From positions 496,001 through 560,000 of the forward strand of contig CDROCS010002676.1 of assembly GCA_977020255.1 (NCBI GenBank): 64,000 nt of DNA, in the 5' to 3' direction. Shown here piece by piece: positions 4,582 through 58,885 of the stretch. The notes under the pieces were generated by a model, which searched no databases, was not told where the DNA came from, and worked only from the letters and a program-made list of their open reading frames with translations. The position numbers were made by a program, and so were the translations under genes. This DNA comes from Obrimoposthia wandeli (taxonomy: Eukaryota). The stretch's first letter is position 1; each line of letters starts with the position of its first letter.

Positions 4582-5044
4582 TGTTGGGGTTTCTATATGA
4601 AACTTATATAGATCCTCTTGTGTGCGGAGGGCCCCAACGTGAGTTCGAATAGAAGCAGATCTTAAAGTTGGTCGTGGCCTACTTAGTGCTATGGTCTCCT
4701 GTCTCAACTACTTATCTGAAGGTGTTTGTTTTGACGTCTCTTAATCTGAAGGTTTTAAAACAACGTTTTCTAATGTAGGAAATCGTTTATTGTTAACACA
4801 CTAGACTAATACAACAATATGTTTACGTACGTATTTTCTAAAAAGTTATAGTAAAAATTCCTAAGACTTCTGTAAGTCTCTACACCAGTGGGGATGAACC
4901 ACGTATCGATTTTACGTTAAGGTTGGTTAATATCTTAGAGTCTTTTCCTTAAATCGCGAATAAGCTCAAGTTATAGATTTTATGGAGCTGGTTGCTCTAC
5001 TTCAAATGGTGAATTTATAGGCAAACAATTGTTAATTAAATTTA

Positions 5045-5895
5045 TAGGCAAAACAATTATTACTTCAATGGTAATTTTATAGGTAAACAAATATTTCTTC
5101 AATGATAATTTTATAGGCAAATAAATATTTCTTCAACGATAATTTTATAGGTAAACAAATATTTCTTCAATGATAATTTTATAGGCAAACAATATTTCTT
5201 CAATGATAATTTTATAGGCAAACAATATTTCTTCAATGATAATTTTATAGGCAAATAAATATTTCTTCAGTGATAATTTTTTAGGTAAACAAATATTTCT
5301 TCAATGATAATTTTATATGCAAAACAAATAGTATGTCAATGATAATTTATATGCAAAACAAATATTATGTCAATGATAATTTATATGCAAAACAAATATT
5401 ATGTCAATGATAATTTTATAGCAAAACAAATATTATGTCAATGAAAATTTTACAGGCAAACAATATTTCTTCAATGATAATTTTATAGGTAAACAAATAT
5501 TATGTCAATGATAATTTTATATGCAAACAATATTTCTCAAATGATAATTTTATATGCAAAACAAATATTATGTCAATGATAATTTATATGCAAAACAAAT
5601 ATTATGTCAATGATAATTTTATAGCAAAACAAATATTATGTCAATGACAATTTTACAGGCAAACAATATTTCTTCAATGATAATTTTATAGGTAAACAAA
5701 TATTATGTCAATGATAATTTATATGCAAAACAAATATTATGTCAATGATAATTTTATAGCAAAACAAATATTATGTCAATGACAATTTTACAGGCAAACA
5801 ATATTTCTTCAATGATAATTTTATAGGTAAACAAATATTATGTCAATGATAATTTTATATGCAAAACAAATATTATGTCAATGATAATTTTATAG
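5045..5895. repeat. AT-rich 31-33-bp tandem array (about 25 units, two variants) within the LTR; counterpart at ~24560-25376
   Basis: Units TTTCTTCAATGATAATTTTATAGG(C/T)AAACAAATA and TTATGTCAATGATAATTTTATATGCAAAACAAATA. Confidence 0.93.
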
Positions 5896-5959
5896 TCGTT
5901 TCGTCTCACCTATTTAATCCGATTTTCCAATTCCTGGGACGACGTGTAAGCTTGCCGAT

Positions 5960-6157
5960 CCGCAACTGTAAGATGAATCCCGATTCGCAACTGTAAGATG
6001 AATCCCGATTCGCAACTGTAAGATGAATCCCGATTCGCAACTGTAAGATGAATCCCGATTCGCAACTGTAAGATGAATCCCGATTCGCAACTGTAAGATG
6101 AATCCGATTCGCAACTGTAAGATGAATTCGATTCGCAACTGTAAGATGAATTCGATT
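5960..6157. repeat. 25-bp GC-richer tandem array in U3: 8 copies here, 5 copies at ~25441-25564
   Basis: Unit CGCAACTGTAAGATGAATCCCGATT, containing the mini-palindrome GAATC-CC-GATTC. Copies counted directly. Confidence 0.93.
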
Positions 6158-7233
6158 GTCTGTCGCTCCGCCGCCGTGAAATGAATTCGATATTGGCTGA
6201 TCTGCAATTCCAGCAATTAATATAGGCTCAAAATTAGGAGCGCTCACCAGAGTTTTTTCCGCTGACTCAGTCCTTCGTCTCGGCTAAAATTGCTCTTTTC
6301 TGTGTGTGTCCCCTGGCACGACAATGACTGATAGTTACTGGAGAGGATTTCTGGTAGTTGATTTTTCTTCCAATTCACTGAGTTTGTTTCTCCTTCTATT
6401 ACAATTCACTGAGTCGACTTATATAGTCGATCGTCGATTGGAGGCAATTTCCACCTGGCTCTTGAAAGTCAGTGAAAATAAAATTGGCTAAAATAATATG
6501 CCTACTGTCAATCTTCTTTTCTGCTGACGTGGTTTTTCTTTTAATTAATTTTCTTTTTTGCTTTGCTTATTATTTTCTTTTGCACTTTTGTTTCCTTTAA
6601 AATTAACTTATATACACAACACATCATACACGACCTTCGTGGTCTTCTAACATTTATTCTTATTTTAATTTTAATAATTTTAATTTTGATTTTAAAATTT
6701 ATTAAATTCTAACCTTGCTTTCAAGGATTTTCATTTTACTATAAAATCAATTTATTATTTTAATTTTTTAATTCCTAAACCTAACATATCTCGGGGGTTC
6801 CAAAAAAGTTACGTCCCCGGAACGTATCGATTTTACTCTTACAAGCCTCTGGCTGTTGATTTTAGGTTCATCCCTACAAAATCAGTCATTCAACTCATCA
6901 AACATGCCCAAAAAAAAAATTCCAAAACCCGGTTTTTAGAGGAAATTATAGTGAATAATTTGGACAAGTCTCAATTTATACACTATTACTACGTAAAACT
7001 AAAAATTACACAAGGGAAAGGATCAAGGGGGTGATTGTCAAGGAAGATGACGGTTCAATTAATGTTAATTGTCAGTTGTTCCTGTCATTTAGGAACAGCG
7101 TGACCTGCTCCAGTGGCAGGTCTGGATACGATGGGGTCTGGCCTTCGAACAGGGCCATCTGCTGGTTGAGGTTGAGGTGCGGGTTGGGATGGAAAAGGGT
7201 TGTGTACCGCCCGTGGACCCCGCGATTCTGGAT

Positions 7234-7569
7234 TCATATTTGGCGACCGCGTTGCCATGAGCGGCAGTCACGGCTTGATCGCCATTTCTCTCGGAGGGAG
7301 AGTTTCGCGTCGCGACGGCGCGCAATGCAACCGGGACATTGGCAATGTTCGCCACCAATACAGCTGGTGAGCGAACGAGTGCCCTTGTGGCGACCGCGAC
7401 ATTGGAGTGTCCATTCCGCGAAGGGAGCACGGCACAACGGACATGTGACGTGGCCTTCGGGTCGAGTTCGGGCCCATGTATAGAGACACGCCTCGTGGAA
7501 CTTGTGACGGCAGCCGACAGGGGATGCCGATGCCGTCCAAATTTTCTCCAGGCAGACTGAACACTTCAT
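7234..7569 (-). CDS. RING-H2 finger protein 1 (LTR-element cargo), with C-terminal C-x5-C-x-C-x2-C motif
   Basis: CSVC...CRHKFHEAC...W...CPLCR is a C3H2C3 RING. ATG at 7569; the ORF track starts at an upstream GTG. Confidence 0.85.
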   Translation of the reverse strand: MKCSVCLEKIWTASASPVGCRHKFHEACLYTWARTRPEGHVTCPLCRAPFAEWTLQCRGRHKGTRSLTSCIGGEHCQCPGCIARRRDAKLSLREKWRSSRDCRSWQRGRQI

Positions 7570-7919
7570 CTGCACAAGATAATGATTTTTTTCAACTTGG
7601 GGTTCGACTGTTTTCGTCGTTAGTTTATGAAGTTAAAATTTTAGTTTCAAAACGAAACCTTAGTTTTTAATCCTACCGAGTTTTGTTCCGATTTTAGGCA
7701 TGTTTACACATTCATACTAGGCATAAAAAATTGTCTTTTAGAATTTCAGTATAATAATTACAATTTCAATTAAACAACATACATAAAAATGGTAATGGTC
7801 ATTTTACAGTTTCACAAGATTATACAATTATGATTACAATTATGGTAGTTAATTTATCGCGGTATGCGATACACAGGGTAGTTCATGATGTCACGTTCAA
7901 GTCAGAAAGTTACCTTCGA

Positions 7920-8225
7920 TTATTGCTGGGAGTTGGGCTGGCCTGTGCGTCGCTCCTCCACGCAGAACGAGCACCAGCAATCGCAGATAGTTTTCCAGCA
8001 GTGTACTATGGGTACCACTGCTTGGAGGCTGTCCTGGATGTACAAGTAGTGCACTGAGAAGGTCGCTCTGCACATCGGGCAGGTTGGGTAGTCGAGGGGA
8101 TTGTTGCTGTTGGCGATGGGAATCCACGTCTCGAGGCATTCGATGTGGAATAGGTGGTCGCAGTTGTTGGGCTTGGTGTAGAGGTCCACGATGCTCTCGT
8201 AGCAGATGGAACATTCTCCAGACAT
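7920..8225 (-). CDS. RING-H2 finger protein 2 (cargo), with C-terminal C-x6-C-x-C-x2-C motif
   Basis: CSIC...CDHLFHIEC...W...CPMCR, then CWKTICDCWCSFC. Confidence 0.88.
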   Translation of the reverse strand: MSGECSICYESIVDLYTKPNNCDHLFHIECLETWIPIANSNNPLDYPTCPMCRATFSVHYLYIQDSLQAVVPIVHCWKTICDCWCSFCVEERRTGQPNSQQ

Positions 8226-8285
8226 TACTGTGAGAGGGTTGATGTTGAATTTGGGCTCGATTGAGGACTGGTGATTGTGTGATGT

Positions 8286-8585
8286 TTACACAAAAGAGGT
8301 CGGATTTTGTCGTTCTGACAAACAGTAGTAACACCAACACTCTCCGAAATTCTTCCAACAGAATACCACCTGTACATATACATCCTCTTGGTTGGGTTCT
8401 ATCATGATGAACCTTGCGAATTGTCTTCTGCATACAGGGCAACAAGGGTATGTTGGATGTCCGAACTGTCCATAAGTTCTGATCCATGTTGATAAACATT
8501 CCTCGTGGTGTAAATGGTTGCAGGTTTCGGGTCTTGTTCTTCGTTCGGTTAGATCTTCCAAACATATTGGGCATTCTTCGGACAT
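8286..8585 (-). CDS. RING-H2 finger protein 3 (cargo), with C-terminal C-x6-C-x-C-x2-C motif
   Basis: CPIC...CNHLHHEEC...W...CPVCR, then CWKNFGECWCYYC. Confidence 0.88.
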   Translation of the reverse strand: MSEECPICLEDLTERRTRPETCNHLHHEECLSTWIRTYGQFGHPTYPCCPVCRRQFARFIMIEPNQEDVYVQVVFCWKNFGECWCYYCLSERQNPTSFV

Positions 8586-8708
8586 TCTAAATACATGATG
8601 ATGATTAATTTCTACATGAGTTTTATATATTTCTACTATTTGTACAATCGCTTCTAGGTATTTCTACATATTTCACACACTAATTTATCTACAACCTCCT
8701 CTGACTTA

Positions 8709-9707
8709 TCATATCTTGATGGGAGGCGGAGGTAAGGGTCGCAATTCCACTTCCTCCATGGTGGGTGTGTTACAGCATCGCAGTCCTTCGCATTTTCGTC
8801 GTATTTTTGGGCATATTTGACTGCCTTTCACGCACACGACTGTCAATAGGACCACTGCTGTTGACACTACGGCCATTCCAATTAGAGCGTTGACCGCTGT
8901 TACTCTGCTATCAGATGATTGATAATCATACTTCATTTTGTTGTTTGTCGGTTCGAATGACATTTCCATTGGTCTTGATCGGTTTCCATGTATTAGGTCC
9001 GATTTTCTAAAAATTCGCGGATTTGGATATTTTGTTTCTGGTGGAACAGGTATTATTATTTTAGATTGGAAATTATGTTTGGGATCTAGTGGGATCGTTC
9101 CCCTCACTCTTGTCCTCTTAATAATTGTACTTTGGTTTCTGGAATTGAGCTCTTTTTCTTTCGCTTCTGTCTTTGTTCTGATCACTTTTGGCTTTTTGGA
9201 ATGGCGTTTACTTTCGTTTACCTTTGCCTTCTTTTTGACTAGGATTGGTTTTTTGGGAATGATTTTCCTGGGTTTGATACTTATACCGGATCTACGAAAT
9301 CGACGGTTCTGGTATCTTAGAGTTATGTAGAATATTTCACCTGTTATTACCATGATTATGGTCGAGGTCTCTGTAGCATTGCTGGGAATTCGGTTACATA
9401 GACATTCTGTATCAAAATGTGGTACTAACATTTGGTTTTGGATTTCGAATCTGATTCCGCCATCTGGATTGGGACACAACACTGTTACTCTGTCGGTTTC
9501 TAGCAATCTGAAAAATATTCTAACATAATTCCATACGGTTTTACGTCGTCTACCTGTGATCATAATCCTGTCGACAATTTTCCAGATGCGCTCATCTCTA
9601 GGCAATATTAATGACTTTGTTCGGATACTTTGGATAATCCGCTTCCTCTTTGATATCGTTATCCGTAGGTATAACACTCTTTCATGTGGATTTCTTTGAA
9701 CCAGGAA
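8709..9707 (-). CDS. Putative type-I membrane protein at the end of the Pol frame (joined to 9659-10408 by a 1-nt shift)
   Basis: Preceded by signal-peptide-like LLAIGLLSCLMPITGA at the end of ORF 9659-10408. Contains RRFRR (furin-like), hydrophobic VNALIGMAVVSTAVVLLTVVCV, and a short Cys-rich tail ending RPLPPPP. Confidence 0.6.
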   Translation of the reverse strand, partial: FLVQRNPHERVLYLRITISKRKRIIQSIRTKSLILPRDERIWKIVDRIMITGRRRKTVWNYVRIFFRLLETDRVTVLCPNPDGGIRFEIQNQMLVPHFDTECLCNRIPSNATETSTIIMVITGEIFYITLRYQNRRFRRSGISIKPRKIIPKKPILVKKKAKVNESKRHSKKPKVIRTKTEAKEKELNSRNQSTIIKRTRVRGTIPLDPKHNFQSKIIIPVPPETKYPNPRIFRKSDLIHGNRSRPMEMSFEPTNNKMKYDYQSSDSRVTAVNALIGMAVVSTAVVLLTVVCVKGSQICPKIRRKCEGLRCCNTPTMEEVELRPLPPPPIKI

Positions 9708-10408
9708 CTATTTCCGTGGTTAGAGCCTATCTCTTGTGCTCCCGTTATCGGCATTAGACAACTTAACAAGCCTATCGCTAGCAATCTTTGGTATTGAAAG
9801 CTGGGCACTGTTGTTGTAGCTTCATTTGTTTCTCGTTGTTGCTTCCTCTTTTCGGTGTACTTCTCTATTTCTCGAACGAGTAACGGTTTGAATTCCGTAT
9901 CTGGTCTATTCTGTTTGATGTAGACCATCGCTTCTTCTGGTGTATGACCATGGTACTCTACCAACAAGGATACACCTATGGTAGGCGCTAACATCGTACC
10001 TTTTTTCTGATATATCAGAACGCCGTTTCCTTCTGTGACTTCGGCTTGGATGGTTTGAGTCAATTTCATCAGATGTTGTTGTGAATCATTTATTTCTCGA
10101 TTGGAAGCATGTATGTATCGAGTGGTGTCGTCTTCAGTATTTTGACACAGACTGATTATCTCGTTTCCGACTTCAACAATATTAATTACTCGGTTGATAC
10201 TGTGGAACTTTAATCCAGCAGCATCTATATCTCCTGGATAACATAAAAATACTTTTGGCATTATCTGAGTAATTTTGTCGACTCCGGCTAAGAATAAACC
10301 GGTCAACGATAATGCTTGGAGGAAATTCTTTTCCTTTGGATCCTCAGGAATGTCGTCCATCCGTCTTTGTTCTTGCAACATAAGTTGGTAATTTGACAAC
10401 TGTCCCAA
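9659..10408 (-). CDS. End of DSP domain 1, plus a catalytically dead dual-specificity-phosphatase-like domain 2, plus a signal-like segment
   Basis: Starts GQLSNY, completing PNLNF(L)GQL. Then QIMPKVFLC...INRVINI...GVLIYQKKGTMLAPTIGVSLLVEYHGHTPEEAMVYIKQNRP follows the DSP fold, but HCxxGxxR is replaced by YQKKGTML. Confidence 0.75.
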   Translation of the reverse strand: MGQLSNYQLMLQEQRRMDDIPEDPKEKNFLQALSLTGLFLAGVDKITQIMPKVFLCYPGDIDAAGLKFHSINRVINIVEVGNEIISLCQNTEDDTTRYIHASNREINDSQQHLMKLTQTIQAEVTEGNGVLIYQKKGTMLAPTIGVSLLVEYHGHTPEEAMVYIKQNRPDTEFKPLLVREIEKYTEKRKQQRETNEATTTVPSFQYQRLLAIGLLSCLMPITGAQEIGSNHGNSSWFKEIHMKECYTYG

Positions 10409-13400
10409 AAATTAAGATTTGGGTTTGCAATACTTCTTCTCTCCTGTAGGTATTTCAGTGCTTCTAGTACCTGCATTCGTATAGTCTTTATTAGATACGC
10501 TAATACTAGGGTTGCTGATCGAGAAATTCCTTTCTGACAATGTACCAACACTTTTCCTTGGTTTCGGAGTTCTCTGTGAAGTATTTCGTTTGTTTCTACG
10601 AACCATTCGAGAAGATTAGCGTCCATTGAGTCTTTTACTCTTAATGTCATGGCTCTGATTGTCTGGTATTGTGATTTGTGATTCATTGTAACATTGATCA
10701 CGTATGTTATCCCTTGTTCCAACAGTTTCTTTTCATCTGTTGCATCTTTCACATTTCCGAGGTATAACTTATCTGGAATGATCTCACTCATTGGTGGCAA
10801 TAATTCTGACTCTTCAAGTTTTAGTCTTTCTAATCTCTTCTCTATCTGTTCGTCGATGTTGGATAGTTTCGCCAATTTCTTTCCTCTCAGCATTCGTATT
10901 GCTGGAGAGATATTCATCTTTGTCTCTGATGTCTGTTTCTTTGTTGAGTCTTCTTCCGACTCGGTCTCTTCTGCAGATTTAATTCGTCTTTCTTGTATAT
11001 TCTGTTTCACGAATTCTATGTTTTGTCTTTTTCTGCTCTCTTTAGCGAATTCAACCTCCATGGTTTTTTCGAATCGCTCTATCATGTTATCTTCAGATTC
11101 TGTTGATTCTGTATCGTTACTTTCCGGTTCGCTGTCTTGACCAGACTCGCTCGAAGGGTATTCTGGTATGTCTGTCTGAACTGAAATTAATGAAGGGGTT
11201 AGAATAATTGGATTGACTGGTCCTGCGTATTTGTGAATCGGATACGGTATTACGCTATCTTTAAGTATCTCAACTTGGAACTGTGCTCCATAGCACATGA
11301 CAATTGTTTCCAATTTACCCATGATGGATAATCCATCGAAATAGGTAACATTCAGCTTAGATATCGGTGTTTTCGCATAATTAATTAAATTGACTCGTAT
11401 CTCGGTTGATGACGGCCATCGATTTTTTAGTAAAATTATAATTTCGTCGTTTATCGATGTAATTACACTTGGCGCGGATGATACTATTTCAGCATGATAT
11501 TTTGGCTGGATTGAGTTTGTCACTTGTTCTCGGATAATATTGATTCGTTGTGGTTTATTTTTAGCTTCCCACTTCCGGTATCCGCTGTCAATGCGTAACT
11601 CTGCCGTTGCTTTGATGATTTTATTGTTGGTCACTTCCGGTTGGGTTGGCGAATGAAATCCTTCTATTACGCTCAACCTTACAGATACTTCCGTTTGATC
11701 TGTGTCTAACCGGTGAGATTCTGGTATACAACATACAATTGTCTTTCCGTCAAAGTATTTGGTGTCCATCTGACAAATTATCTTTTCGGTGTCTGCGTCG
11801 ATTAAATGAACTCTCATAATATCTCTTTTCCCATGTGAATTACGTAATACCATTATTACATCATGGTATTCTTGTTTGAGTCTTTTTGGTGTACCATGAA
11901 GAATGTGACCACCGGCCGGTTCCTTTTCTTCCTGACTGGCTAGACCTGTTTCAGTACTGTCATAATTCTGCCATGCAACTATGTTTGGTGTCAATGTGAT
12001 TTCGATTAACACTTTCTTAGTCGTAAACACATTGGAGTTTTGATATAGTGCTGCGACTAATGTATTTCCGTCGTAGTATGACACTCTAAGTTCGCATAGA
12101 AATTCGTTTGTCAGTGCATCTTTCACAATGACTTCTTTCGCCACATCTGTTGGTTGTGTTTTTTCGAAAACAACTATTATCTCTTCGTCTTCTTCTAATA
12201 TCTCTTGTGGTGCGATGTGTCGAATTACTTCTTTTTCCTCTTGGTGCTTCATTCTGAGCATACCAATTCTCGCTGGTTTTTTCTCGCTACCACTCGTCAT
12301 CATGTTTATGTAGTTCCGATCACTTACCATTCGTGTAAGCTTAATGGTATTGGTATTCGGCTTCGATTTCTGTGATCTTAACTCATATCGTGACGCGTTA
12401 TCTTTATTTGGTACTAATTTGCATCGATTTGCATGTACAATCATCGGTTCCTTGTTCCGATTTTCCTCGTTGATTACTTTCAAGTTCGTTGAGGTTGTCT
12501 GTATCACCTTGTATGGTCCTTTGTATGGTCTATGAAGTTTAAACGATAGACCTGGTTCGATGACTGGATAAAATATCATCACTTGATCTCCGACTCTAAA
12601 TTCATGTGGTTTTGCTTTTTTGTCGTATTGTTCCTTGTAACCTTCTTGATTGAATTTCAACTTCAATCCGGCTTTGGTCCAAGCATCCTGCAATCTTTCC
12701 TTCATGACGACAATGTATTGTTCAGTTTCTAGATACTGAGATGTTGGCTCGGTCCACTCCAGATCCATCGGCATATTGTTCTGTCTGAGATACATCAGAT
12801 AGAATGGTGTGTGACCCGTCGCCTCTCGAACTGAATTCCTGTAAGCATATAAACATGAAGGTAAATATTTATCCCAATCCTCTTGCTTGTCTGAGCAATA
12901 GGATTGTACCATCATACATAAAGTTTTATTAAACCTTTCTACTAGACCATCTGTTTGTGGGTGATATGGTGAAGTTTGTAACTTCATGATTCCGAATATC
13001 TTCGATACTGCTTTTATTACTTCTCCAGTGAAGTTCTTACCTTGATCCGTTAACAACTTTCTAGGCACTCCGTATCGAAATATTATCTCTTCCACTAAGA
13101 TTTGCGCTATTGTTTCAGCTTTCTGGTTCTGCATGGGATATGCTTCTACCCATCTCGTCATGTAGTCCGTAAATACTATGACGTACTTGTTTCCTTTACT
13201 TGATTCTCTCAATGGTCCCAATATATCCATTGCTGTGAATTCCATTGGTGCCAAAGGAACTGGCATTGGTTTCAGTGGAACTTTAGTACGGGTTCCAGTA
13301 TCTTTTCTGGTTAAACATACTTTACATTGTTTACACCATTGTTTTATGTCGTCTTCCATGCCATCCCAATGGTACTTCTCTTTGATTCTGGCTATTGTCT

Positions 13401-13515
13401 TTCGCCCTGACAGATGTCCTCCTAGTGTTCCATCGTGATACTGGATCATCACTGCTGTTTTCAATGACTTTGGAATTACTACTATTATCTTTCCGACATT
13501 ATTGACAATATACAA
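10303..13515 (-). CDS. Pol part: integrase (HHCC, DDE, GPY/F), three IPT/TIG-like repeats, acidic linker, active dual-specificity phosphatase
   Basis: H-x5-GH...CKQC, MDILGPL, TDQGKNF, GLVERFN, YKGPYKV. DSP: EIIPDKLYLGN...VHCQKGISRSAT. In frame with 13537-16539 across a single TAA. Confidence 0.93.
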   Translation of the reverse strand: MYIVNNVGKIIVVIPKSLKTAVMIQYHDGTLGGHLSGRKTIARIKEKYHWDGMEDDIKQWCKQCKVCLTRKDTGTRTKVPLKPMPVPLAPMEFTAMDILGPLRESSKGNKYVIVFTDYMTRWVEAYPMQNQKAETIAQILVEEIIFRYGVPRKLLTDQGKNFTGEVIKAVSKIFGIMKLQTSPYHPQTDGLVERFNKTLCMMVQSYCSDKQEDWDKYLPSCLYAYRNSVREATGHTPFYLMYLRQNNMPMDLEWTEPTSQYLETEQYIVVMKERLQDAWTKAGLKLKFNQEGYKEQYDKKAKPHEFRVGDQVMIFYPVIEPGLSFKLHRPYKGPYKVIQTTSTNLKVINEENRNKEPMIVHANRCKLVPNKDNASRYELRSQKSKPNTNTIKLTRMVSDRNYINMMTSGSEKKPARIGMLRMKHQEEKEVIRHIAPQEILEEDEEIIVVFEKTQPTDVAKEVIVKDALTNEFLCELRVSYYDGNTLVAALYQNSNVFTTKKVLIEITLTPNIVAWQNYDSTETGLASQEEKEPAGGHILHGTPKRLKQEYHDVIMVLRNSHGKRDIMRVHLIDADTEKIICQMDTKYFDGKTIVCCIPESHRLDTDQTEVSVRLSVIEGFHSPTQPEVTNNKIIKATAELRIDSGYRKWEAKNKPQRINIIREQVTNSIQPKYHAEIVSSAPSVITSINDEIIILLKNRWPSSTEIRVNLINYAKTPISKLNVTYFDGLSIMGKLETIVMCYGAQFQVEILKDSVIPYPIHKYAGPVNPIILTPSLISVQTDIPEYPSSESGQDSEPESNDTESTESEDNMIERFEKTMEVEFAKESRKRQNIEFVKQNIQERRIKSAEETESEEDSTKKQTSETKMNISPAIRMLRGKKLAKLSNIDEQIEKRLERLKLEESELLPPMSEIIPDKLYLGNVKDATDEKKLLEQGITYVINVTMNHKSQYQTIRAMTLRVKDSMDANLLEWFVETNEILHRELRNQGKVLVHCQKGISRSATLVLAYLIKTIRMQVLEALKYLQERRSIANPNLNFWDSCQITNLCCKNKDGWTTFLRIQRKRISSKHYR

Positions 13516-13536: not shown

Positions 13537-16500
13537 TTATTTCGTCATTTCATCGTTTAGATCTCCTTTCACCAACAATTCTTTGATTAGACTCAATTCT
13601 TCATCTTCTTTCTGTTCTTTGATGATCTCTTTGTCTATTTTACCCGTCTTCAGCAAAATCGTCAGTAGATTTGCTTCTCCTTTTTGGTCATTGGTTTCAT
13701 CTTCTTCTGGAATTATGTTTCCTTTCTCGTCTACATTTGTCAATCTCGACAAACAATCTGCGTTGCCGTTCGACTTTCCGGTTCTATAACGGATTTCTAG
13801 ATCGAATTCGGCCAATTTTAGAAACCATCTGTTTAATCTACTCATATCATCTCTATGTTTATATAAGAACTGTAGTGGTTTGGGATCTGTATATAGGAAT
13901 ACTTTTTGTCCTAGCAAGTAGTGTCTGTACTGTCTACATGAATACACTATGGCTAGACATTCCTTTTCGATAACAGAGTATCCTCTTTCAGCTCTGTTTA
14001 ATCCTCTACTCGCATACGCGATGACGTGTTCTCTTCCTTCGTCATCCTCTTGTCCCAATACTGCTCCTACAGCATAGTTACTTGCATCTGTCATGAGTAT
14101 GAATTGTCGGTTTATATCTGGAAACGCTAATATTGGTGCGTTTATCAGCCTTTCTTTTAAATGCTCGAAAGCTTGTTGTGCTTCTTCTCCCCATATGAAC
14201 TTCTCATCTTTCCTCGTCAACTTTCTCAATGGTGTTGCTATATCTGAAAAATGTTCAACGAATCGTCTATAATAATTCGCAAGACCTAAAAAACTCTGTA
14301 TTTCCTTAACAGTCTTTGGCGCTAAATGCGCTTTTACTTTCTCGATCTTCGCTGGATCAGGTCGAATGCCTTCTTTCGATACTATATGTCCTAAAAATGT
14401 TACTCGCTCTTTAGCCCATTCACATTTTGTAGGTTTAACTTTTAATTTAGCGTTTTCCAGTCTTTTAAATACAACTTCAAGATTTTTTAAATGTTCTTCG
14501 AACGTTTTCGAAAATATTATTATGTCATCGATATAAACCATCGTGTTTGCACACGATGCGAGCACAAAATTCATGCAACGCTGAAATGTTGCTGGAGCTT
14601 CTGTCAGTCCGAATGGCATCTTTTCGCATTCGTATAGGCCATCTCCGCAGGAAAAGGTTGTTTTGTGTTTATCCTCTTCCTCTATCTCGATTTGCCAGTA
14701 TCCACTCTGCAAATCCAATGTCGTAAAATAATCTGAATTACCCAATTTATCGAGCATCTCTTCGATTCTAGGTAATGGATACACATCTTTTCTTGTGATC
14801 TTGTTCAGTTCTCTGAAATCTATACAGAATCTCATTTTCCCATCCTTCTTTTTTACCAACACCACAGGTGCTGAGAATGGCGAAAAACTCGGTCTAATTA
14901 CTCCTGTTTTAGACATATCTTCGATCTGACTTTTTACTTCATCTTGTAACTGTAATGGTACTCGATATGGTCTTCTTCTGACTACTTTGTCTTCTGTCAG
15001 TGGTATTGTATGTTTTATGACAGGTGTTTCTCCTATGTCATATGGATTTTTTGCAATTACTTTCGGAAATTTATGTATTAGATCAAGTAATTGTTTCTTT
15101 TCTCTAGTTGTCAGTCTTTCTGATTGGATTACTATTTCTTCGTAATCATTCGTATCTTTATCGAGTTTCATAGCGCATACAGTGGAATTCTCCATCTGTG
15201 CTATCTTTCCCAACCTCATTCCTCTGTATAATAGAATGTCATTGTTGGTTGTATTCATCAGTCTAACTGGTATTTTGTGGTTTTCGATCAGGCATACTGT
15301 ACTCACAACTGGTAATTCGTATTTCTCTATGAAATCTCGTGATGGTTCGAACACAACTGGTCCTTTATCTTCTGTTAATGTGTGACCTTGAATGAGAAAT
15401 TGTGATCTTTTACCGATTTTTATAGGATTCTCTATAATTACATCAATTTGGTTTATTTGTCTGTTTGATGTACTATCCTTTAATCTTGGATCTTGTAAAT
15501 CAATACTTATCCCTTTAAGTTGTGATAGTACATCCATTCCTAAAATTGTAGGTTCAGGACATTCTTTCATGATTCTAACTGGTATAGTGATCGTATTACG
15601 TCCAATTATAAATGTACATGGTAATATTCCCGTCACTTTTACAGGGTCTCCATTGACCGATACCAAGAATTCATCTGGTTCTGCCATTGTTCGTTTCTGT
15701 TCCTCTGTCAAACAGTCTTCACTTACTATCGAAGCTACAGCACCTGTATCAATTAAGGCTTTTACTCTTAAATTATTTACTCTAATGATAGCTGCTGGTC
15801 GCTGTGCTCCATTTATGTTTCCCATATGGTATATTGTATTTATCGAATTATTACACTCTGTCAGTCCACTTCCTTTGTTTGGATAGTGAAATCTAATGTT
15901 TCTCACTTGTCGATCTATTATTCTTCGACAAATTGGACATGATACTATTTCATTCGCACATCTCCGACATGTTCTTACATGTCCGCATGGTAGAAAGGCA
16001 ACTTCTATTTTGTTGACCATGCAAACTGCGCATTCCGGATCTTCTAGTACGTATTCTAGTTCATTTATGTACTCTTTCTCTTTTGTTTCAATTGTACTGT
16101 CATCTTTATCTCGCAGTAATTCAAAAATCGATCCGTATCCGTTTCGCGTAGTTTTTATTTTTAATTCTACCAATTCTCTGATTCTTTCTGCTTCTTTTGG
16201 ATATAACCTTCTCACGAATGACACTACCGGTGTGTCTTGTTGAGCCAAAATCTCTTTCCGTGTGATTTGGTATTCGATTATACATTCGGTTTTCTGTTCT
16301 TTTTGCTTTATTTTATTTTTAAAAATACAAAATTCGCAAAATTCATGATGTAAAATTTTCTTAGGTAGCTCAAGAGTATATCTGTCGATAATTCGTTCTT
16401 TTTTACACTTGTGGCATTTAATTACGTCTTTACCATCCTTTTTTATAGCAAAAAGTCCCTTTTTTGCCAATTTTTTAAGTCTTGGATCTTCGAAAGTTAC

Positions 16501-16539
16501 TTCTCGATATTGTTCGTCACATTCGTTCACTTCTCGCAT
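13537..16539 (-). CDS. Pol part: degenerate BIR2, IAP-type RING, aspartic protease 2, reverse transcriptase, RNase H
   Basis: LAKKGLF...CHKC-x18-H-x6-C; CAVC...FLPCGH...CRRC...CPICR; LIDTGA; FCIDFRELN, LPRIEE, MPFGL, YIDD; TDASNYAVGAVL, EKECLAI, DCLSR. Confidence 0.95.
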   Translation of the reverse strand: MREVNECDEQYREVTFEDPRLKKLAKKGLFAIKKDGKDVIKCHKCKKERIIDRYTLELPKKILHHEFCEFCIFKNKIKQKEQKTECIIEYQITRKEILAQQDTPVVSFVRRLYPKEAERIRELVELKIKTTRNGYGSIFELLRDKDDSTIETKEKEYINELEYVLEDPECAVCMVNKIEVAFLPCGHVRTCRRCANEIVSCPICRRIIDRQVRNIRFHYPNKGSGLTECNNSINTIYHMGNINGAQRPAAIIRVNNLRVKALIDTGAVASIVSEDCLTEEQKRTMAEPDEFLVSVNGDPVKVTGILPCTFIIGRNTITIPVRIMKECPEPTILGMDVLSQLKGISIDLQDPRLKDSTSNRQINQIDVIIENPIKIGKRSQFLIQGHTLTEDKGPVVFEPSRDFIEKYELPVVSTVCLIENHKIPVRLMNTTNNDILLYRGMRLGKIAQMENSTVCAMKLDKDTNDYEEIVIQSERLTTREKKQLLDLIHKFPKVIAKNPYDIGETPVIKHTIPLTEDKVVRRRPYRVPLQLQDEVKSQIEDMSKTGVIRPSFSPFSAPVVLVKKKDGKMRFCIDFRELNKITRKDVYPLPRIEEMLDKLGNSDYFTTLDLQSGYWQIEIEEEDKHKTTFSCGDGLYECEKMPFGLTEAPATFQRCMNFVLASCANTMVYIDDIIIFSKTFEEHLKNLEVVFKRLENAKLKVKPTKCEWAKERVTFLGHIVSKEGIRPDPAKIEKVKAHLAPKTVKEIQSFLGLANYYRRFVEHFSDIATPLRKLTRKDEKFIWGEEAQQAFEHLKERLINAPILAFPDINRQFILMTDASNYAVGAVLGQEDDEGREHVIAYASRGLNRAERGYSVIEKECLAIVYSCRQYRHYLLGQKVFLYTDPKPLQFLYKHRDDMSRLNRWFLKLAEFDLEIRYRTGKSNGNADCLSRLTNVDEKGNIIPEEDETNDQKGEANLLTILLKTGKIDKEIIKEQKEDEELSLIKELLVKGDLNDEMTK

Positions 16540-16686
16540 AACTTCGAATATGTCTTCAATTCGGCTATTTGTTATTACTCTGCCTACTATTAGAGCTTAT
16601 TCTCCTTCTGGAATCTCGTCACTGTAATCGAAATCGGGTGCTTTTCCCATTTGGATTTCTGGTACGTTTGAAGTTTTCAATTTCAA

Positions 16687-16880
16687 AAGAAATGGGCAAT
16701 TTGGTGCATCTCTTTTATGACGTCTCATTGGGTTTTCATTCTTTTCCCACTCTCTAAACTTTACTCTACATCATACGCATCGTACGACTTCCTCATGACC
16801 ATAACTACTTGTCGCGTTTAACATTTCTAAACCTGATCTTGCCATTTTACGTGCCATTTCTTTTGAATAGTACTGTTCTA
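16687..16880 (-). pseudogene. BIR domain 1, interrupted by an in-frame TGA (16771-16773) and missed by the ORF track
   Basis: Reading through the stop gives MARSGL...EVVRCV*CRVKFREWEKNENPMRRHKRDAPNCPFL, an exact C-x2-C-x16-H-x6-C BIR signature. Confidence 0.9.
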
Positions 16881-17610
16881 ATATATTTCGTCTCTTTTTC
16901 TCGAATCTCATGGGATCCTTTTCTGACAGATTAACATATGTTATTTTCCTCCTCGTCATCTCTTGTGGTCCGAGGTTTACGTTTTTGTAGTGAAGTATCG
17001 ACTTTACTAGCGCTTCCTGTTTTTTGTCTTGGTACGAATTTCCCAAACGGAACGTAGTGTATTTTTCTTTTTCGACTACAGGTCCTCTCAACATTTTTAT
17101 CTCTCTCACTGAACTGTCATTCTTATAACTCTTGTTGTTTGGTAGTATAATTATTCCTTCAAACATTCTTATTACGTCCATCCCAATCATGACTGGACTT
17201 CCGCAATCTGTGAATATTCTAGCATTTAACTGCAATGCTCTTCCATCGATATTCAATGAACATTTCAGTGTTCCTTCTGACACTACATCTGTACCATTTA
17301 CGTTAACAAATGTCTGTTTTCTAGGACATACTTCTCTTAATTCTTTTGATGACAAGATTTCTTTACTCAGTACTGATACTGCAGATCCAGTATCAACTTC
17401 GGCAAGATATTCTCTTCCGTTCAATGTTACTGCTACTTGTGGTGGAGCATTTGGATTCTCATTTGATATCCTAGACTTCAGAATTCTTCTGGAATTATCT
17501 TTTTTGTCTTTTTCCTCTGCTTGTGGAATCTCACTGTAGCTCACTTTAGGCCATCTTATCATTAAGATGCCTCTCTTGAACTTTTCCTTCTCTTCCTTTA
17601 GTTCCTTCAT
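16771..17610 (-). CDS. Aspartic protease 1 (additional retropepsin), linker, and N-half of BIR1
   Basis: VAVTLNGREYLAEVDTGSAVSVLS...VNG...G.L.C...IGMDV, colinear with protease 2. Confidence 0.88.
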   Translation of the reverse strand: MKELKEEKEKFKRGILMIRWPKVSYSEIPQAEEKDKKDNSRRILKSRISNENPNAPPQVAVTLNGREYLAEVDTGSAVSVLSKEILSSKELREVCPRKQTFVNVNGTDVVSEGTLKCSLNIDGRALQLNARIFTDCGSPVMIGMDVIRMFEGIIILPNNKSYKNDSSVREIKMLRGPVVEKEKYTTFRLGNSYQDKKQEALVKSILHYKNVNLGPQEMTRRKITYVNLSEKDPMRFEKKRRNILEQYYSKEMARKMARSGLEMLNATSSYGHEEVVRCV

Positions 17611-17628: not shown

Positions 17629-19211
17629 TTATTTTTTTACAACATGTTTGTAATTCTTGTATATTTCTATTGTTCCTGTACGAAATGCGTCTTCGCAATC
17701 TCTCGGAAAAACCTTATGTGCTTTGTACGGTGTGGTAGGTGTGATTTCTGACATAAAACTTCTATGACCACAATAGAATTCGTGATAACTTGAATGGATT
17801 GAACATTCTTTCACTTCTACTTGTGCTTTATCAACATCCTGATACACAAAGTAGTTTTCAACACCTTGAACTTCTAGTTTTGACGGTTGTGACTCTGGAC
17901 AGTCTTCGCTGTCAAGCAGTGAATACTTTTGTCCCATCTTTGGTATGCTACAGTCGTATGCTATCAATCCTGATGCCTGTTGCATTCCCATGAACATTAC
18001 TAACATCATCATCATCATTGTTGTGGACATATTTGGTTGATTGTTTCTTTCTTTCGGACGGTATTGTTTATTTTCTCTTTGACGATTCTCATGACATTGT
18101 TCGTCATCGTCTTCGTTCATTTCCACAATGGTTTTAGCGTAGTCACTTAATTTTGCCCAACCTCCGTTTTCGTCGATTCGTCTCTGTAACACATTCTCGA
18201 TCAAATACATCGCTTCATTTATTCCTTGTTTGACTTCGTGAGGTTGGCTCGTTCGTTCCGTCAATTGGAAACATAGATATGTGATTGCTGTAATTAACTT
18301 TTTATTTGTAGTCTGGTTTCCACATAATCTCGCTAAAACTTCACCGTCGTAAAATCTATCTATTGATGCATGGTATACATGATTCGCAGTCATTCTCTTT
18401 ACTGCAGACATTTGTGATCTAACTGCTTTAGTCAAATTGTCTGTTATATCGGTTGTTTCATCTCTGTACATTTTGAACAACTTTGGCTTCACTTGCCTGA
18501 GAATTCCCGTAAGTATATCTTTACTACTTGGAGTTTCCGAATTCATATCACCTCTGATATCTTCATTCCGCTCCGTACTATACTGCTCTAATGACGCTGC
18601 TAACTGTCCAATGCTTAGATGTCTCTCTTTATCAGTTTGTGGTGCAGTTAGAACATTTCGTAATATACTTCCGTCTTTTCTAGGTCTTCCAGGTCCTCTT
18701 CGAAAATACTGATACTCAGTTTGATTCTCTCCTGGATCATACGGTTCACCATTATACTGTATCTCTTGACTTGGTCCCTCTTCATGGCCAATCTCTTCAC
18801 TTTGTCGCATCATCTGCTCTGCTTGTCTGTCTTTGTATGCAGCATGCCAAATTGGTGAATCTAAATCTACAATTTCGGAGATTTCATCTTCTCCTACTAG
18901 TTGGGTTACGTTTTCGTTTTGTCTCGCTTGGTTAGCTGTATCCATGACTTCATCTTGTCTGATTTGAATTATATCTGGTTCTGGTGGTACTTCGACCACT
19001 GGAGTTGTCAACTCATTTTCTAAATTCATGTCTTGTAATTCAGCTACGTACGGTTCTGGTGTGGATGTCTTGTTCCAAGCTTCAGCTACATCATTATCTC
19101 CGCTTTCGCTTGAACTGTCTAAAATTTCTATAGGCGTTTTTATCATTTCTAACGCAGAGTTTAATATCTCCGTTAATCCTTCATTATCTACTAACTCTTG
19201 ACGTCCTACAG
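17629..19211 (-). CDS. Gag-frame extension: acidic region, AT-hook, Bcl-2-like domain, hydrophobic signal, truncated chuvirus-type glycoprotein N-terminus
   Basis: RRGPGRPRK (AT-hook); LRQ..YR..TDITDNL and IDENGGW (Bcl-2 helices, BH2); MMMMMLVMFMGM..ASG-LIAYDC...SLLD...C...KEC...CG...C...TG. The ORF track's first residues (19212-19287) come from the hAT insertion. Confidence 0.7.
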
Positions 19212-20657
19212 CAGGGTTTCTCAACGGGGGCCCTGGGGCCCCCTGGGGGGCCACACAATTTGCCAGGGGGCCACACGAGCCAAACAAAAATAAAAAATTA
19301 ACACCCCTGTTTTCACTGGGTTAAACACTTCGATGGCTGCACACGTGTGCCATAAATAAATGTTTGACATGGAATAAAAACAGAGTATAGACTTCTAGAT
19401 ACATATGGACGCGACGCGTCAACTTATTTCGTGGGCGTACCAGCCCAATGAGGGCCGACGGTAAAACATCATAATATGCCTTTGCAAAAATATCATCGCG
19501 CTACAAAAGTTTGTGTGGCGGATGTGGCATATGCATAATCATCATTCTGAGTAATCTATGGACTAAAATCAGTAATCGTGTTGTGTCTCAGCGTGTGAAG
19601 AGAAGAGTGTCACACTTCATGTGTACATGCCCAAAATACGCTGCCATTGAAAAATGCTACCTACCTAACTCACAAACGTGCACTTGTGTTTGTTTTGAAT
19701 GAGTCAGTAGTTGATTTCTTTCTTCTTGTTTGTCATTCACCATATCTGAATGTACACACATAGGACCTTGTTTTTCTAATTGTCTTTTTGCTCACGTTAC
19801 CCTTGTAAACAATTTTCATTTCTGATTTTTAGTTGACAATGAGCAGCAAGAAAAAGTGCAGACAGTATAATTGTGATTATTTACGTTTCGGATTCATTGC
19901 AAGCCAAAGTAATTCTCAACTTCCTGAGTGTATTGTCTGTAACACTGTGCTCTCCAATGACTCAATGCGACCATCAAAACTTGAGGCTCATCTCCAAAAG
20001 AAGCATCCTGACATTGCAACAAAACCGCGCACATATTTTACTCAGCTTCGTGATCAGAGGACAACAGCCTCAACCCAATTGCGAAAATTTGTGGTTCCTC
20101 AGAACTTTACTTCTGGCTTAACAGCATCATATAAAATTGCATATTTAATGGCGAAACAGGGTAGAGCGCATACACTGGCAGAGCAGTTGATTAAACCTGC
20201 TATCTTGGAAGCATTTAATGTTGCCATGTATCAAATCCACAGTCAGTGCTCGCATCGATTCCTCTCTCAAATGAAATTTTCAAGAAGGTTTATCCCTTTA
20301 TTGTTAATCTACCGACGTCGGTGTTAGCTGAGAAGGGGTTCTCAGTTGTCCTTCATTCGTTCGCAAAACAGCGGATGAATCTCAAGTTGTGTGACAATGC
20401 AGAAATCCGTTTACGACTTTCTGAAAATGCTCCAGATTTCACTACACTTGTTGGCAAACGCCAAGCGCAAGGGTCACACTAACATTTTTTAAATATAGTT
20501 TTCTCATTGATTATCTTTTTGAATGTTTCCATGACAGAATAGTATAATTGAAAACAATACGTATACGATGTAATCTTTTTGTTCATAGTAGAGGGGGGCC
20601 ACAGCAATTTGCTGCAAACTAAAGGGGGCCGTGGTGAGAAAAGGTTGAGAAACCCTG
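19212..20657 (+). mobile_element. Non-autonomous hAT (Buster/Charlie-type) DNA transposon, internally deleted, 1446 bp
   Basis: TIRs CAGGGTTTCTCAAC / GTTGAGAAACCCTG and 8-bp TSD TCCTACAG (nnnTAnnn) at 19204-19211 and 20658-20665. Contains a BED-finger N-terminus (KKKCRQY..YL.FGF...PECIVC...LSNDSM.PSKL..HL..KH) joined to a Buster-type C-terminus (PTS.L.E.GFS...QAQGSH). Confidence 0.95.
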
Positions 20658-21011
20658 TCCTACAGTGATGACATCAATTTTTTCCTCTAATTCATTTCCT
20701 ATCGGATATCCACACTCGACTGGTACGTCCTCATCATCTAGTGATCTCCCTTTATAATGGAACAACATATTCATTCCATCAATTTCAAGTTTCTCGGCCA
20801 ACTTTTTTCGAATAGTTTTCATTGTCTGATACACGTTAAGTTTTTCATGTATAATCTGTCCGGAAATTAATCGAAGTGAAATATTCATCGTTCCTTCCTG
20901 GTTTGATCTCTGTACGTAGCGACCATAACCTTTCAATAATCCTCGTGGTACTTCTTTGTAACCCAAGTTATCATGACTATGTTTAACCAATTCTGCTCGC
21001 ACTTCTTCCAA
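20658..21011 (-). CDS. Ubiquitin-like domain following Gag; continues in frame into 19211 once the hAT is removed
   Basis: MNISLRLISGQIIHEKLNVYQTMKTIRKKLAEKLEIDGMNMLFHYKGRSLDDE follows the ubiquitin pattern (MQIFVKTLTGK...TI..VK.KI...L.F.GK.L.D). No C-terminal GG. The junction reads KIDVITVG|RQELV. Confidence 0.7.
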
Positions 21012-23086
21012 TCTGTGTGCACTTTAATTGTTTGCAATTTGGCCAAAACTTCTGGAGCTTCACTCGTTTCATCTAACGGTTGATTCAACGTCTCCTTAGC
21101 TTCACTAATTATCTTTTTTACATTTTCCATACTCGTAGCATTTCTTGATGCTTCTACATGATCAGTCATAGGTTGTGCGTTACACGTTTTCTCTATTGGT
21201 GTCTCATATGCTTCTAGTATTTGGTTCATTAAATCATTCATCTCTTCTCTCGAGTGTAGACTTTTTTCTTGTTTCGACAACGTAGATGAATTCGCCATCT
21301 TTGTATGTGGTGAATCTTTAATTATTCCCAACATTCGTTCAAATTTACTATCACTATCTTCAAAATCTATTTCGCGTCGAAGTTCGGTCTCGCGATTCCT
21401 ATCGCTGTCATCGTTTACATAACTAAAATTTCCTTTCGGTTTCGGCGAACTCTCGCGACTATTTGTCTTGTCAACATTATTATTATTATATCTACCGGAA
21501 TTATTATATCTCTCAGCTCCTTGCTGTCCTACGTAATTATTGTATCTCTCAGCTCCTTGCTGTCTGTCTGCATAGTTATTGTATCTACCTGGTGACTGTT
21601 GTCTATCTGTATACTGATTATTCGGTCTCCATGGCTGTGGAGTATATCCACCACCTCTATTCCATGGCGGGGGTGAATTATATCCTCTATAATTATTTCC
21701 AAAATTATTATTACCGAAATTATTATTTCCGAATCTGTTAGTTCCGAACTCTTTACTTCTCGTACAATCTCTCGAATAGTGAGCCATTTGTTTACACGTG
21801 TAACACATTATTCTCCCTCGAATATCTATCTTATTTTGTTCATCTTCGAACTGTACTCGACGACTATTCTGTCTATTATCATATCGTCCTCTAAAATCAT
21901 TTCTTCGGAAATTCGATTCAAAACCGCTTCCTCGATTATTGAATCTTCCGTCACTACTTCCTGTATTATTTCCAAATCGAGAGTCACTTCGCTCTTCTCT
22001 GTTTGCGTTGTAATTCCTATCGTCTCCTCTCCAAGGTTGGCGATTTCCTGAATTTTCTATGTTAAATCTATTCCTGGAATCATCTCTATTTCTATTCCAC
22101 GAATCATTACTATTTCTACCTCTTGAATCATCTCGATTCCTGTTCCAAGACTCACTATTATTTCTACCTCTGGAATCATCTCGATTCCTACTTCGGAAAT
22201 TATCTCTGTTTCCGTTACTGGATTCATCTACTTTTTCAAACTTATTTTGTCCATAATTTCGATTCTGAAAATTACTCGGTTCTGTTTTATTCACGAAGAC
22301 CTTTGTCTTATCGTCGTCACCTGCAGTCATTGCGTAAATTGCCAATGCTGCGTTATTTTTTATATTTTTCTCAATCTCTCTCGCCTTTCGCACGGCGTTA
22401 TCAAAATCATTTGTATCCGATACTGCCAATAATACTTTAATATCTTTTTTCAGTCCTCCTCTAAATATATCCAACAAAACCTCTGCCATTTCATTTTGGT
22501 TCCGGTCATTTTCCGCTACTTGTGCTTCTTGAGCTACAGGAATACCGTCCTGATTTCTCATTATTCTTCTTGGGTACGCTCTTGCAGCCAAGGTTCTCAA
22601 AACATACGCGTATTCATTCACGCCTTCATCATGTTTCTGCTTCCGTTCTCTCATGAGTCGCTTATTTACTTTGGCTAAGTCTCCTAATACCAATTTTCCA
22701 ATAAAAGCATTTTCCAACGTTGGCCAGTCTAAACGTTCTGCTTCTGTCAAATGTTTATACACTTCAAGTGCTAATCCGGTTAAGTGTGCCTGTACTCGGA
22801 CACATTTTTCTTTATCGTTCCATCCTTGAACATCTGCACAACTCGAATATTCTGCGAGGAAGTCACAAATACTTTCCTCATCTCCTTTAAACTTTGTGAT
22901 CTGCAATGATCCTGAAAAGTTGGGTCTCAACGTCGCATTTAGGGCTTGTGCCAACTGTTCGGCATTCATGTCACCTACATTATTTCCTGCATTATTATCT
23001 GCTTGAGCTCCTGGGTGAGCCATATTTTCAACTATATCTTCTTCAACTATTTCTTCAATATTATTCGCTTGAACTTCTTCAATCAC
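20933..23086 (-). CDS. Gag (capsid, N/R/G/Y-rich low-complexity region, CCHC knuckle)
   Basis: KFKGDEES..FL..Y...GW...LTGLA..Y...W..L...F, and CYTCKQMAHYSRDC. First in-frame ATG at 23023; the frame is open without an ATG up to ~23410. Confidence 0.9.
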   Translation of the reverse strand: MIEEVQANNIEEIVEEDIVENMAHPGAQADNNAGNNVGDMNAEQLAQALNATLRPNFSGSLQITKFKGDEESICDFLAEYSSCADVQGWNDKEKCVRVQAHLTGLALEVYKHLTEAERLDWPTLENAFIGKLVLGDLAKVNKRLMRERKQKHDEGVNEYAYVLRTLAARAYPRRIMRNQDGIPVAQEAQVAENDRNQNEMAEVLLDIFRGGLKKDIKVLLAVSDTNDFDNAVRKAREIEKNIKNNAALAIYAMTAGDDDKTKVFVNKTEPSNFQNRNYGQNKFEKVDESSNGNRDNFRSRNRDDSRGRNNSESWNRNRDDSRGRNSNDSWNRNRDDSRNRFNIENSGNRQPWRGDDRNYNANREERSDSRFGNNTGSSDGRFNNRGSGFESNFRRNDFRGRYDNRQNSRRVQFEDEQNKIDIRGRIMCYTCKQMAHYSRDCTRSKEFGTNRFGNNNFGNNNFGNNYRGYNSPPPWNRGGGYTPQPWRPNNQYTDRQQSPGRYNNYADRQQGAERYNNYVGQQGAERYNNSGRYNNNNVDKTNSRESSPKPKGNFSYVNDDSDRNRETELRREIDFEDSDSKFERMLGIIKDSPHTKMANSSTLSKQEKSLHSREEMNDLMNQILEAYETPIEKTCNAQPMTDHVEASRNATSMENVKKIISEAKETLNQPLDETSEAPEVLAKLQTIKVHTDWKKCEQNWLNIVMITWVTKKYHEDY

Positions 23087-24070: not shown

Positions 24071-24089
24071 ATCCTCACTCGGGACACCA
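24071..24089 (-). promoter_or_regulatory. Primer-binding site (19 nt), best matching elongator tRNA-Met
   Basis: Sense TGGTGTCCCGAGTGAGGAT. The complement ATC-CTCAC-TCGGGAC-A-CCA parses as T-loop end, 5-bp T-stem, 7-bp acceptor strand, discriminator and CCA, and resembles metazoan elongator tRNA-Met 3' ends. tRNA identity is from memory. Confidence 0.8.
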
Positions 24090-26192: not shown

Positions 26193-26196
26193 CATC

Positions 26197-28100: not shown

Positions 28101-28199
28101 GGATATTTTCATTGACTAATATACTTTCAAGGCCTACCTGTTGCTACAAAATAGTTATATAATTCGTTAACAAACGGTTTTCGATTGACATTATCGTTT

Positions 28200-58800: not shown

Positions 58801-58885
58801 AATTCCTGTCGAAATAAAATAAGTACAAATAGGTAGTGGTAGTATAAACAAACGTAGAAAAATAGGAACCATATTTGAGTAAGAA

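Follow-up and report, generated by a model that had tools for sequence, protein, structure and literature searches.

Three RING-H2 genes sharing a cysteine module form an accessory cassette of a Burro-like giant Gypsy retrotransposon in Obrimoposthia wandeli

What are three small, neighbouring RING-H2 genes doing in the genome of Obrimoposthia wandeli, and does the cysteine motif that follows each RING belong to a known domain? We addressed this in a 64,000-nucleotide stretch of DNA (the window; GCA_977020255.1, contig CDROCS010002676.1, positions 496,001 to 560,000 of the forward strand). A sequence-only reading had described three tandem RING-H2 ORFs of about 100 aa with a common C-terminal cysteine motif. 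The ORFs and motifs are exactly as described, and all three RINGs exceed the Pfam zf-RING_2 cut-off of 27.3 bits. We name the genes R3 (37.5 bits), R2 (36.2 bits) and R1 (37.1 bits) in their order of transcription on the minus strand (Table 1). Each RING has the C3H2C3 ligand pattern, a hydrophobic V/I in the first CxxC and an Arg directly after the last Cys; a preprint on ORF61 describes such residues as E2-contact and linchpin residues (bioRxiv 10.64898/2026.03.11.710994). R2 and R3 are mutual best relatives (80 bits) and are 29-34% identical to R1 (alignment A1). Because R1 ranks only 4th to 39th among the 150 generic RING matches listed, its paralogy with R2 and R3 rests on the common module, spacing and position. 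The R1 of the window is a truncated copy that stops at codon 111; 29 full-length R1 ORFs elsewhere have 161-179 aa.

The three genes are the last ones inside a 21.6-kb Gypsy element and lie directly inside its 3' LTR. The LTRs are 99.4% identical, the target duplication is 4 bp, and the element is young. Its order is gag, ubiquitin-like (Ubl) domain, BCL2-like stretch, fusion protein, protease (PR), BIR, IAP-type RING, a further PR, RT, RNase H, integrase, two phosphatases, a membrane-protein-like frame and finally R3-R2-R1 (Table 1). The BCL2-like stretch had no Bcl-2 match among PDB sequences. The window copy is damaged by frameshifts, a 1.45-kb insertion, the early R1 stop and internal deletions relative to the copies L125/L126; related copies hold ~1.6-1.7 kb more at two places. 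Hydrophobic signal-like stretches before the env part and after the second phosphatase suggest membrane processing of the polyprotein. Read by eye, the acidic N-terminal part of the frame at 17629-19146 (-) contains the SIM-like cores IEILDSSSES and EIVDLDS. At 6787-6810 there is no clear polypurine tract adjoining the 3' LTR on the sense strand.

Table 1. Features of the retrotransposon and its RING-H2 genes, in window coordinates.
Feature	Position	Strand	Remarks
3' LTR	4582..6786	-	TG...CA; 34-nt and 25-nt tandem arrays; target-site duplication CATC at 4578-4581
Rest of R1 frame beyond the window copy's early stop: helical domain	7072..7233	-	this lineage without SIM-like tail
R1: RING-H2, hairpin, Cys4 module	7234..7569	-	111 aa; module at 7315-7362
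Intron-like R2-R1 spacer	7570..7913	-	donor-like GT at 7912-7913; branch-like CTAAC 54 nt before ATG; acceptor AG at 7570-7571 in 41/41 copies
R2: RING-H2, hairpin, Cys5 module	7920..8225	-	101 aa; module at 7950-8000
Splice-acceptor-like AG, 2 nt before R2 ATG	8228..8229	-	65/68 copies; ends conserved non-coding 60-nt spacer 8226-8285
R3: RING-H2, hairpin, Cys4 module	8286..8585	-	99 aa; module at 8310-8360
Splice-acceptor-like AG, 1 nt before R3 ATG	8587..8588	-	kept in 67/67 copies
284-aa frame, hydrophobic stretch near end	8709..9563	-	no Pfam match; probably end of polyprotein, membrane-protein-like
Integrase and two dual-specificity-phosphatase domains	9659..13449	-	DSPc 108 bits; second 25.9 bits, below cut-off
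BIR-like, IAP-type RING, protease 2, RT, RNase H	13537..16539	-	RING zf-C3HC4_3, 45 bits
Aspartic protease 1, then BIR half-domain	16597..17610	-	BIR 27.9 bits, over cut-off
Acidic region, BCL2-like stretch, start of Monjiviricetes-type fusion glycoprotein	17629..19146	-	BCL2 Pfam E 0.073, weak; glycoprotein PF24664, 54 bits, over cut-off
Secondary DNA-transposon-like insertion	19212..20657		zf-C2H2_12/BED-like ORF; skipped by other copies' contigs
Ubiquitin-like domain	20660..21023	-	Pfam ubiquitin E 0.003, below cut-off
gag-like ORF	20933..23023	-	one CCHC knuckle, Pfam E 0.004, below cut-off
Primer-binding-site-like sequence	24071..24089	-	begins TGG; 8 nt inside 5' LTR
5' LTR	24098..26192	-	1043/1049 aligned bases identical to 3' LTR outside arrays; target-site duplication at 26193-26196

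The closest known system is Burro/GYPSM1, a giant planarian Gypsy element described as present in thousands of copies and as carrying gag, ubiquitin/SUMO-like and BCL2-like domains, a mononegavirus-type env between BCL2 and protease, and BIR plus RING (PMC6431247). The BIR-RING of Burro1 (B-IAP) is reported to protect stem cells from apoptosis (PMC13465017), and Burro is a precedent for giant Gypsy elements with anti-apoptotic cargo. Both elements are Gypsy LTR elements in thousands of copies with a matching cargo order, both place an env-like fusion protein between the BCL2-like domain and the protease, and both carry BIR and RING cargo; the BCL2-like and ubiquitin/SUMO-like domains stand in the expected order here, with Pfam scores below the cut-off (Table 1). 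However, Burro exceeds 30 kb while the element here measures 21.6 kb including its insertion. It has two proteases and two phosphatase domains, and phosphatases are not among the Burro motifs given in section 7 of PMC6431247. The dUTPase-like (between PR and RT), MATH and ankyrin domains of Burro have no Pfam match in this copy, which has internal deletions, and some of them required HHpred in that review. Stand-alone 3' RING-H2 genes are likewise absent from the Burro account in the same section. Burro is also marked by its RT clade, its planarian host and a single ORF of ~5,000 aa; a search for Burro relatives returned one unnamed match at 29% and no named Burro sequence. The element is a Burro-like giant Gypsy variant that shares part of the defining features of Burro. 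Our literature search found no description of stand-alone RING-H2 or STUbL genes in an LTR element, and the terms RING, ubiquitin and SUMO are absent from PMC6338049; the primary Burro papers (Burro1, Dev Cell 2026; Grohme 2018) or their supplements could already describe such ORFs.

The cassette is abundant. Protein searches with R2 and with R1 each gave at least 150 matches at 94-100% identity. Genome-wide, two complementary patterns for C-W-C-x2-C-x2-E-R matched 9,670 and 771 times, against 0 and 0 for the reversed controls; at two per cassette, these ~10,400 matches correspond to roughly 5,000 cassettes, a number that haplotype duplicates in the assembly may inflate. The cassette also follows pol-IN-DSP in an 84-91% identical subfamily (L125/L126) that was reached independently through a search for the Ubl family. 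None was seen in five further Ubl-bearing regions of 30 kb each (C556, C332, C2209, C75 and C369), although in C332 a same-family copy lies at the edge of the fetched stretch, with just its 5' part included.

Substitution patterns indicate that the RING frame is the one maintained. Between subfamilies, dN/dS of R1 is 0.23-0.25 (dS about 1, near saturation) and 0.06-0.11 over the hairpin and module (residues 48-90; dS again near saturation). Across six representatives of the 34 intact blocks, the R2 and R3 modules have RING-frame pN/pS values of 0.19 and 0.42, compared with 1.1-1.5 when the DNA is read in either other frame. For R3, constraint is absent from comparisons of close subfamilies (dN/dS 0.9-1.2) and from the hairpin (1.11). 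Between its polyprotein and 3' LTR, this young, very high-copy Burro-like Gypsy element holds R3-R2-R1 as a fixed set of accessory genes, and purifying selection on the RING frame maintains the set as a whole. The E3 hallmarks expected of a minimal E3 family are present, but the genes are not free-standing; they belong to the accessory complement of a retrotransposon. As a separate observation, four R1 copies (L007, L015, L017 and L020) are nearly identical to L033 over the first 27 codons and have a dS of at least 1.5 over the rest, and R1 variants combine freely with near-identical R2 genes, which points to recombination or module swapping between subfamilies.

The cysteine module follows the pattern C-x5/6-C-x-C-x2-C-x3-R, with four Cys and one Arg invariant across R1, R2 and R3 (alignment A1), and its first Cys lies 23 residues after the C-R of the RING in all three genes. 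The pattern arose spontaneously in 3e-5 to 3e-4 of tail shuffles (100,000 shuffles per tail). The Cys and the one Arg are all that the R1 module has in common with those of R2 and R3, which keep W/W/F-Y aromatics absent from R1. R2 has a fifth module Cys (C81); in R1, the hairpin carries an additional conserved Cys, and a His precedes C76. The label of C-terminal Cys4 module needs correction on two points: full-length R1 continues well beyond the module, and the R2 module has five Cys. Of the full-length ORFs in 96 loci, 28 of 29 R1, 46 of 48 R2 and 35 of 35 R3 retain an intact module, counts that cover unbroken ORFs only, include two loci twice and draw many R2 loci from a Cys-requiring pattern. 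The sequence-only reading was right that the motif is kept in diverged paralogues, and its cysteines are conserved in other copies as well, under purifying selection.

It was also right that the module matches no named domain. Searched alone, the module found nothing in Pfam, NCBIfam, PDB sequences or the ESM Atlas. DM and PHD zinc fingers were considered as candidate relatives; the module, whose segments are short, had no Pfam or PDB match at E<=10. Profiles A1 and A3 yielded 10 and 106 candidates in a set of 5.8 billion sequences, none of them significant. HMMER over 1.84 billion representatives returned 4,583 matches at E<=0.001; the best 150 of these are generic RINGs, and none of the 150 has CxCxxC within 60 aa after the RING. 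The module was likewise found in 0 of 6 viral or metagenome RING loci in one scan and 0 of 67 IMG/VR loci in another. A looser pattern for distant module families gave 68 matches versus 40 for the control, and the genuine ones are old copies of the same family. Across these database, viral and metagenome searches we found no relatives with the module outside this genome. By sequence libraries, then, the module appears not to be assignable to a named domain; a known fold is possible, as the fold searches were filled by the RING.

AF2 models of R2 and R1 place the RING and a beta-hairpin at pLDDT ~90. The Cys loop is at low confidence in both models (pLDDT 52-64 in R2 and 51-63 in R1), and the fold and contacts of the module are for this reason not established. 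A helix follows the module, starting at the last Cys pair; in R1 it runs 36 residues into a small helical domain, followed by a disordered tail. At its fixed distance behind the RING hairpin, the module probably binds one Zn and would cap this short helix. Among viral proteins, those closest in fold are the RINGs of the ICP0 family, PE38/IE2, poxvirus p28 and giant viruses (E 2.5e-4 to 1e-3), while the PDB fold matches are generic RINGs with best Z scores of 6.3 and 6.9, not above background. In the PDB sequence search, the EHV-1 RING is among the longest of the top matches (profile positions 2-66), and the ESM Atlas neighbours are small viral RINGs. The small RINGs of baculoviruses (PE38, IE2, CG30), poxviruses (p28), iridoviruses and giant viruses are nearest by fold and language-model features; in contrast to R1-R3, none of the 67 IMG/VR RING loci and none of the 150 top database RING matches has CxCxxC after the RING. 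With these relatives and the intact RING residues, each gene likely encodes an active viral-type RING E3 that would borrow host E2~ubiquitin.

A comparison with the herpesvirus ICP0/ORF61 family refines this assignment. As described in the ORF61 preprint (bioRxiv 10.64898/2026.03.11.710994), these proteins have an N-terminal RING with a hairpin, to which R1-R3 are similar in fold, and the C-terminal TIDL(T) of some R1 subfamilies resembles the LTIDL of ORF61. They are, however, C3HC4 proteins of 330-820 aa, whereas the predicted proteins here are RING-H2 types of 99-179 aa with an extra Cys module and are encoded by a retrotransposon. Judged from the models, the cassette would work like viral RING E3s without being a member of the ICP0 family, the likeness being one of fold only.

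The tail of R1 adds a possible link to SUMO. We compared 51 R1 tails. The short lineage, which includes the window copy, accounts for 25, all without a SIM-like end; in the other 26, 18 end in [VIL]DLT and 5 more have a partial motif. Variation within the DLT core is synonymous while the flanks vary, in a search that demanded DLT. The R1 tail of one locus, L039, carries LTIDL, the same motif as ORF61. The SIMs of RNF4 read VDLT and that of PIAS VIDLT (PMC3901395), and in VZV ORF61, a viral STUbL, a dominant C-terminal LTIDL SIM is described as driving STUbL activity (bioRxiv 10.64898/2026.03.11.710994). R1 of the longer subfamilies has such a consensus in the same chain as the RING. It shares with RNF4-type STUbLs a RING and a VDLT-type SIM; RNF4 has tandem N-terminal SIMs (PMC3901395), whereas the SIM-like motif of R1 occurs once, C-terminal to the RING, and half of the copies lack it. 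From these sequences, the chances appear about even that the helical domain and an ancestral C-terminal SIM make R1 a SUMO-targeted ubiquitin ligase. None of the window's own R1, R2 and R3 has a SIM: its R1 lineage stops before the motif, and none was seen in R2 or R3. Because this very successful lineage has no SIM-like end, the motif is dispensable for recent amplification, and its loss from the lineage that amplified most weighs more heavily than any other point against an essential STUbL role.

How might three ORFs at the 3' end of such an element be expressed? A YAG lies within 0-2 nt before each cassette ATG, compared with 48 of 393 element ATGs, and the AGs are kept in nearly all copies (Table 1). 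The genes may equally well be made from subgenomic mRNAs as not, using alternative 3' splice acceptors right before each ATG in the manner of complex-retrovirus accessory genes. Two points temper this reading: conservation of the neighbouring bases is about equal to that of each AG, and an origin of the genes by duplication would make the three acceptors non-independent. An alternative to cis-splicing from a 5' donor, somewhat less probable and still a serious contender, is expression through internal promoters, trans-splicing of a spliced leader, or re-initiation. A TATA-like run ~40 nt upstream of R3 and the lack of AATAAA between the cassette genes are consistent with these other routes, and acceptor sites lacking a demonstrated 5' donor are compatible with trans-splicing. 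The donor-like and branch-like sites that bracket the R2-R1 spacer argue against them. Re-initiation or read-through would fit the fact that R3 and R2 are in the same frame, with the 60-nt spacer between them (8226-8285) free of stops in 33 of 34 blocks; that spacer, however, has a pN/pS of 1.14, which indicates no coding constraint, and we reject a read-through product of R3 and R2 on this ground.

Several other features of the window and genome deserve mention. At 56814-57615 (+), in an unrelated decayed region, a BIR-like frame (Pfam E 0.004) precedes an IAP-type RING ORF that is 39% identical over 172 aa to the element's pre-RING/RING, a possible case of cargo exchange between element classes. 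A Polinton-like reading of 57-61 kb (capsid-like by eye) found no Pfam support and was set aside. An intronless 233-aa ubiquitin-conjugating enzyme ORF at 61500-62201 (-) (UQ_con, 94.8 bits), GC-richer than its flanks, is a retrocopy or the cargo of another element. Positions 32003-32722 and 58611-59313 form an inverted copy (~80% identity over ~730 bp), and to the right of the element, at 26604-29311, lie family-B DNA polymerase-like fragments (E 0.011) and a BEL/Pao-like ORF (by eye). Elsewhere in the genome (G000), short ubiquitin-like frames are arrayed at ~270-nt spacing in many contigs (for example C2592:108.2-110.6 kb, C1456, C2050 and C4682), and Ubl domains also occur in long ORFs of other mobile elements. 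A marine-metagenome run (X5) contains contigs that match the element at 95-99%, covering 27 of 30 bins along it at low depth.

Taking these results together, we lean toward an accessory cassette of host-modulating E3 ligases, one of them ancestrally SUMO-targeted, as the best overall explanation. In this proposal, the small RING E3s delivered by the element would use host E2s. R2 and R3 have no other parts, and their aromatic-rich module plus hairpin could serve as a substrate or partner surface, a suggestion that falls a little short of even odds. R1, which is without those aromatics, would instead add its helical domain and SIM to reach SUMOylated targets. That the module instead assists the RING structurally or catalytically (in stability, E2~Ub binding or dimerisation), and is no substrate adaptor, is a sizeable possibility in its own right: the RING-module spacing is fixed at 23 residues in all three paralogues, and R1 shares nothing but the Cys and one Arg with R2/R3. 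The RNF125 C2HC finger and TRAF zinc finger 1 are described precedents (PDB 5dka, PMC4944129, PMC5702613), each a small Cys cluster at a fixed distance after a RING, although their ligand spacing differs and they have no sequence match to the module in Pfam or the PDB. A helper role would, however, leave R2 and R3, with their W/W/F-Y residues that R1 lacks, without an evident substrate-binding part. On balance, a structural role supporting the RING is plausible and about as likely as a substrate adaptor, the latter being plausible for R2 and R3.

Other readings concern the target of the RINGs. They are unlikely to target what the element itself makes (in gag or polyprotein processing, particle release or the control of copy number) or to serve as inactive decoys of host RING E3s. 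The polyprotein's Ubl domain and acidic SIM-like cores suggest that ubiquitin/SUMO signalling may be element-internal; yet the closest structural look-alikes are viral host-modulating E3s, and the intact linchpin Arg and E2-contact residue speak against decoys. Very improbable is a cassette of passively carried DNA-virus or host sequence, or a real product in the 225-aa overlapping frame at 7897-8574. Cargo does seem to move between elements, as with the IAP-type RING at 57.1-57.6 kb, and 30 of 34 blocks keep the overlapping frame open; nevertheless, pN/pS in that frame is 0.89 over R3 and 1.54 over R2, and R1 has a dN/dS of ~0.24 at a dS of ~1. Constraint confined to the RING frame largely refutes both.

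Returning to host-modulating ligases, we can ask what such a cassette would do. Its targets might be restriction or silencing factors of the host, degraded or dispersed as a complement to the element's anti-apoptotic cargo (BIR/RING and BCL2-like), although we consider this specific job rather unlikely. More speculative still is a herpesvirus-like counter-defence kit, in which a spliced trio of RING E3s is built on a new zinc module and its ICP0/ORF61-like SUMO-targeted member would strip SUMO-dependent silencing factors from the element's chromatin, helping it reach ~5,000 copies. Counter-silencing, the boldest reading of the cassette, draws on the requirement for SUMO in piRNA-guided silencing in Drosophila (10.1101/533091). 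At 20-25 kb each, ~5,000 cassettes would amount, as a rough estimate that haplotype duplicates may affect, to several percent of the 1.35-Gb assembly. Animal LTR retrotransposons with anti-silencing proteins of their own are rarely described. A conserved trio of viral-type E3s, for which we infer separate expression, together with a SIM-like tail that is gained or lost between subfamilies, may offer a small, testable handle on how an element disarms the SUMO and ubiquitin defences of its host.
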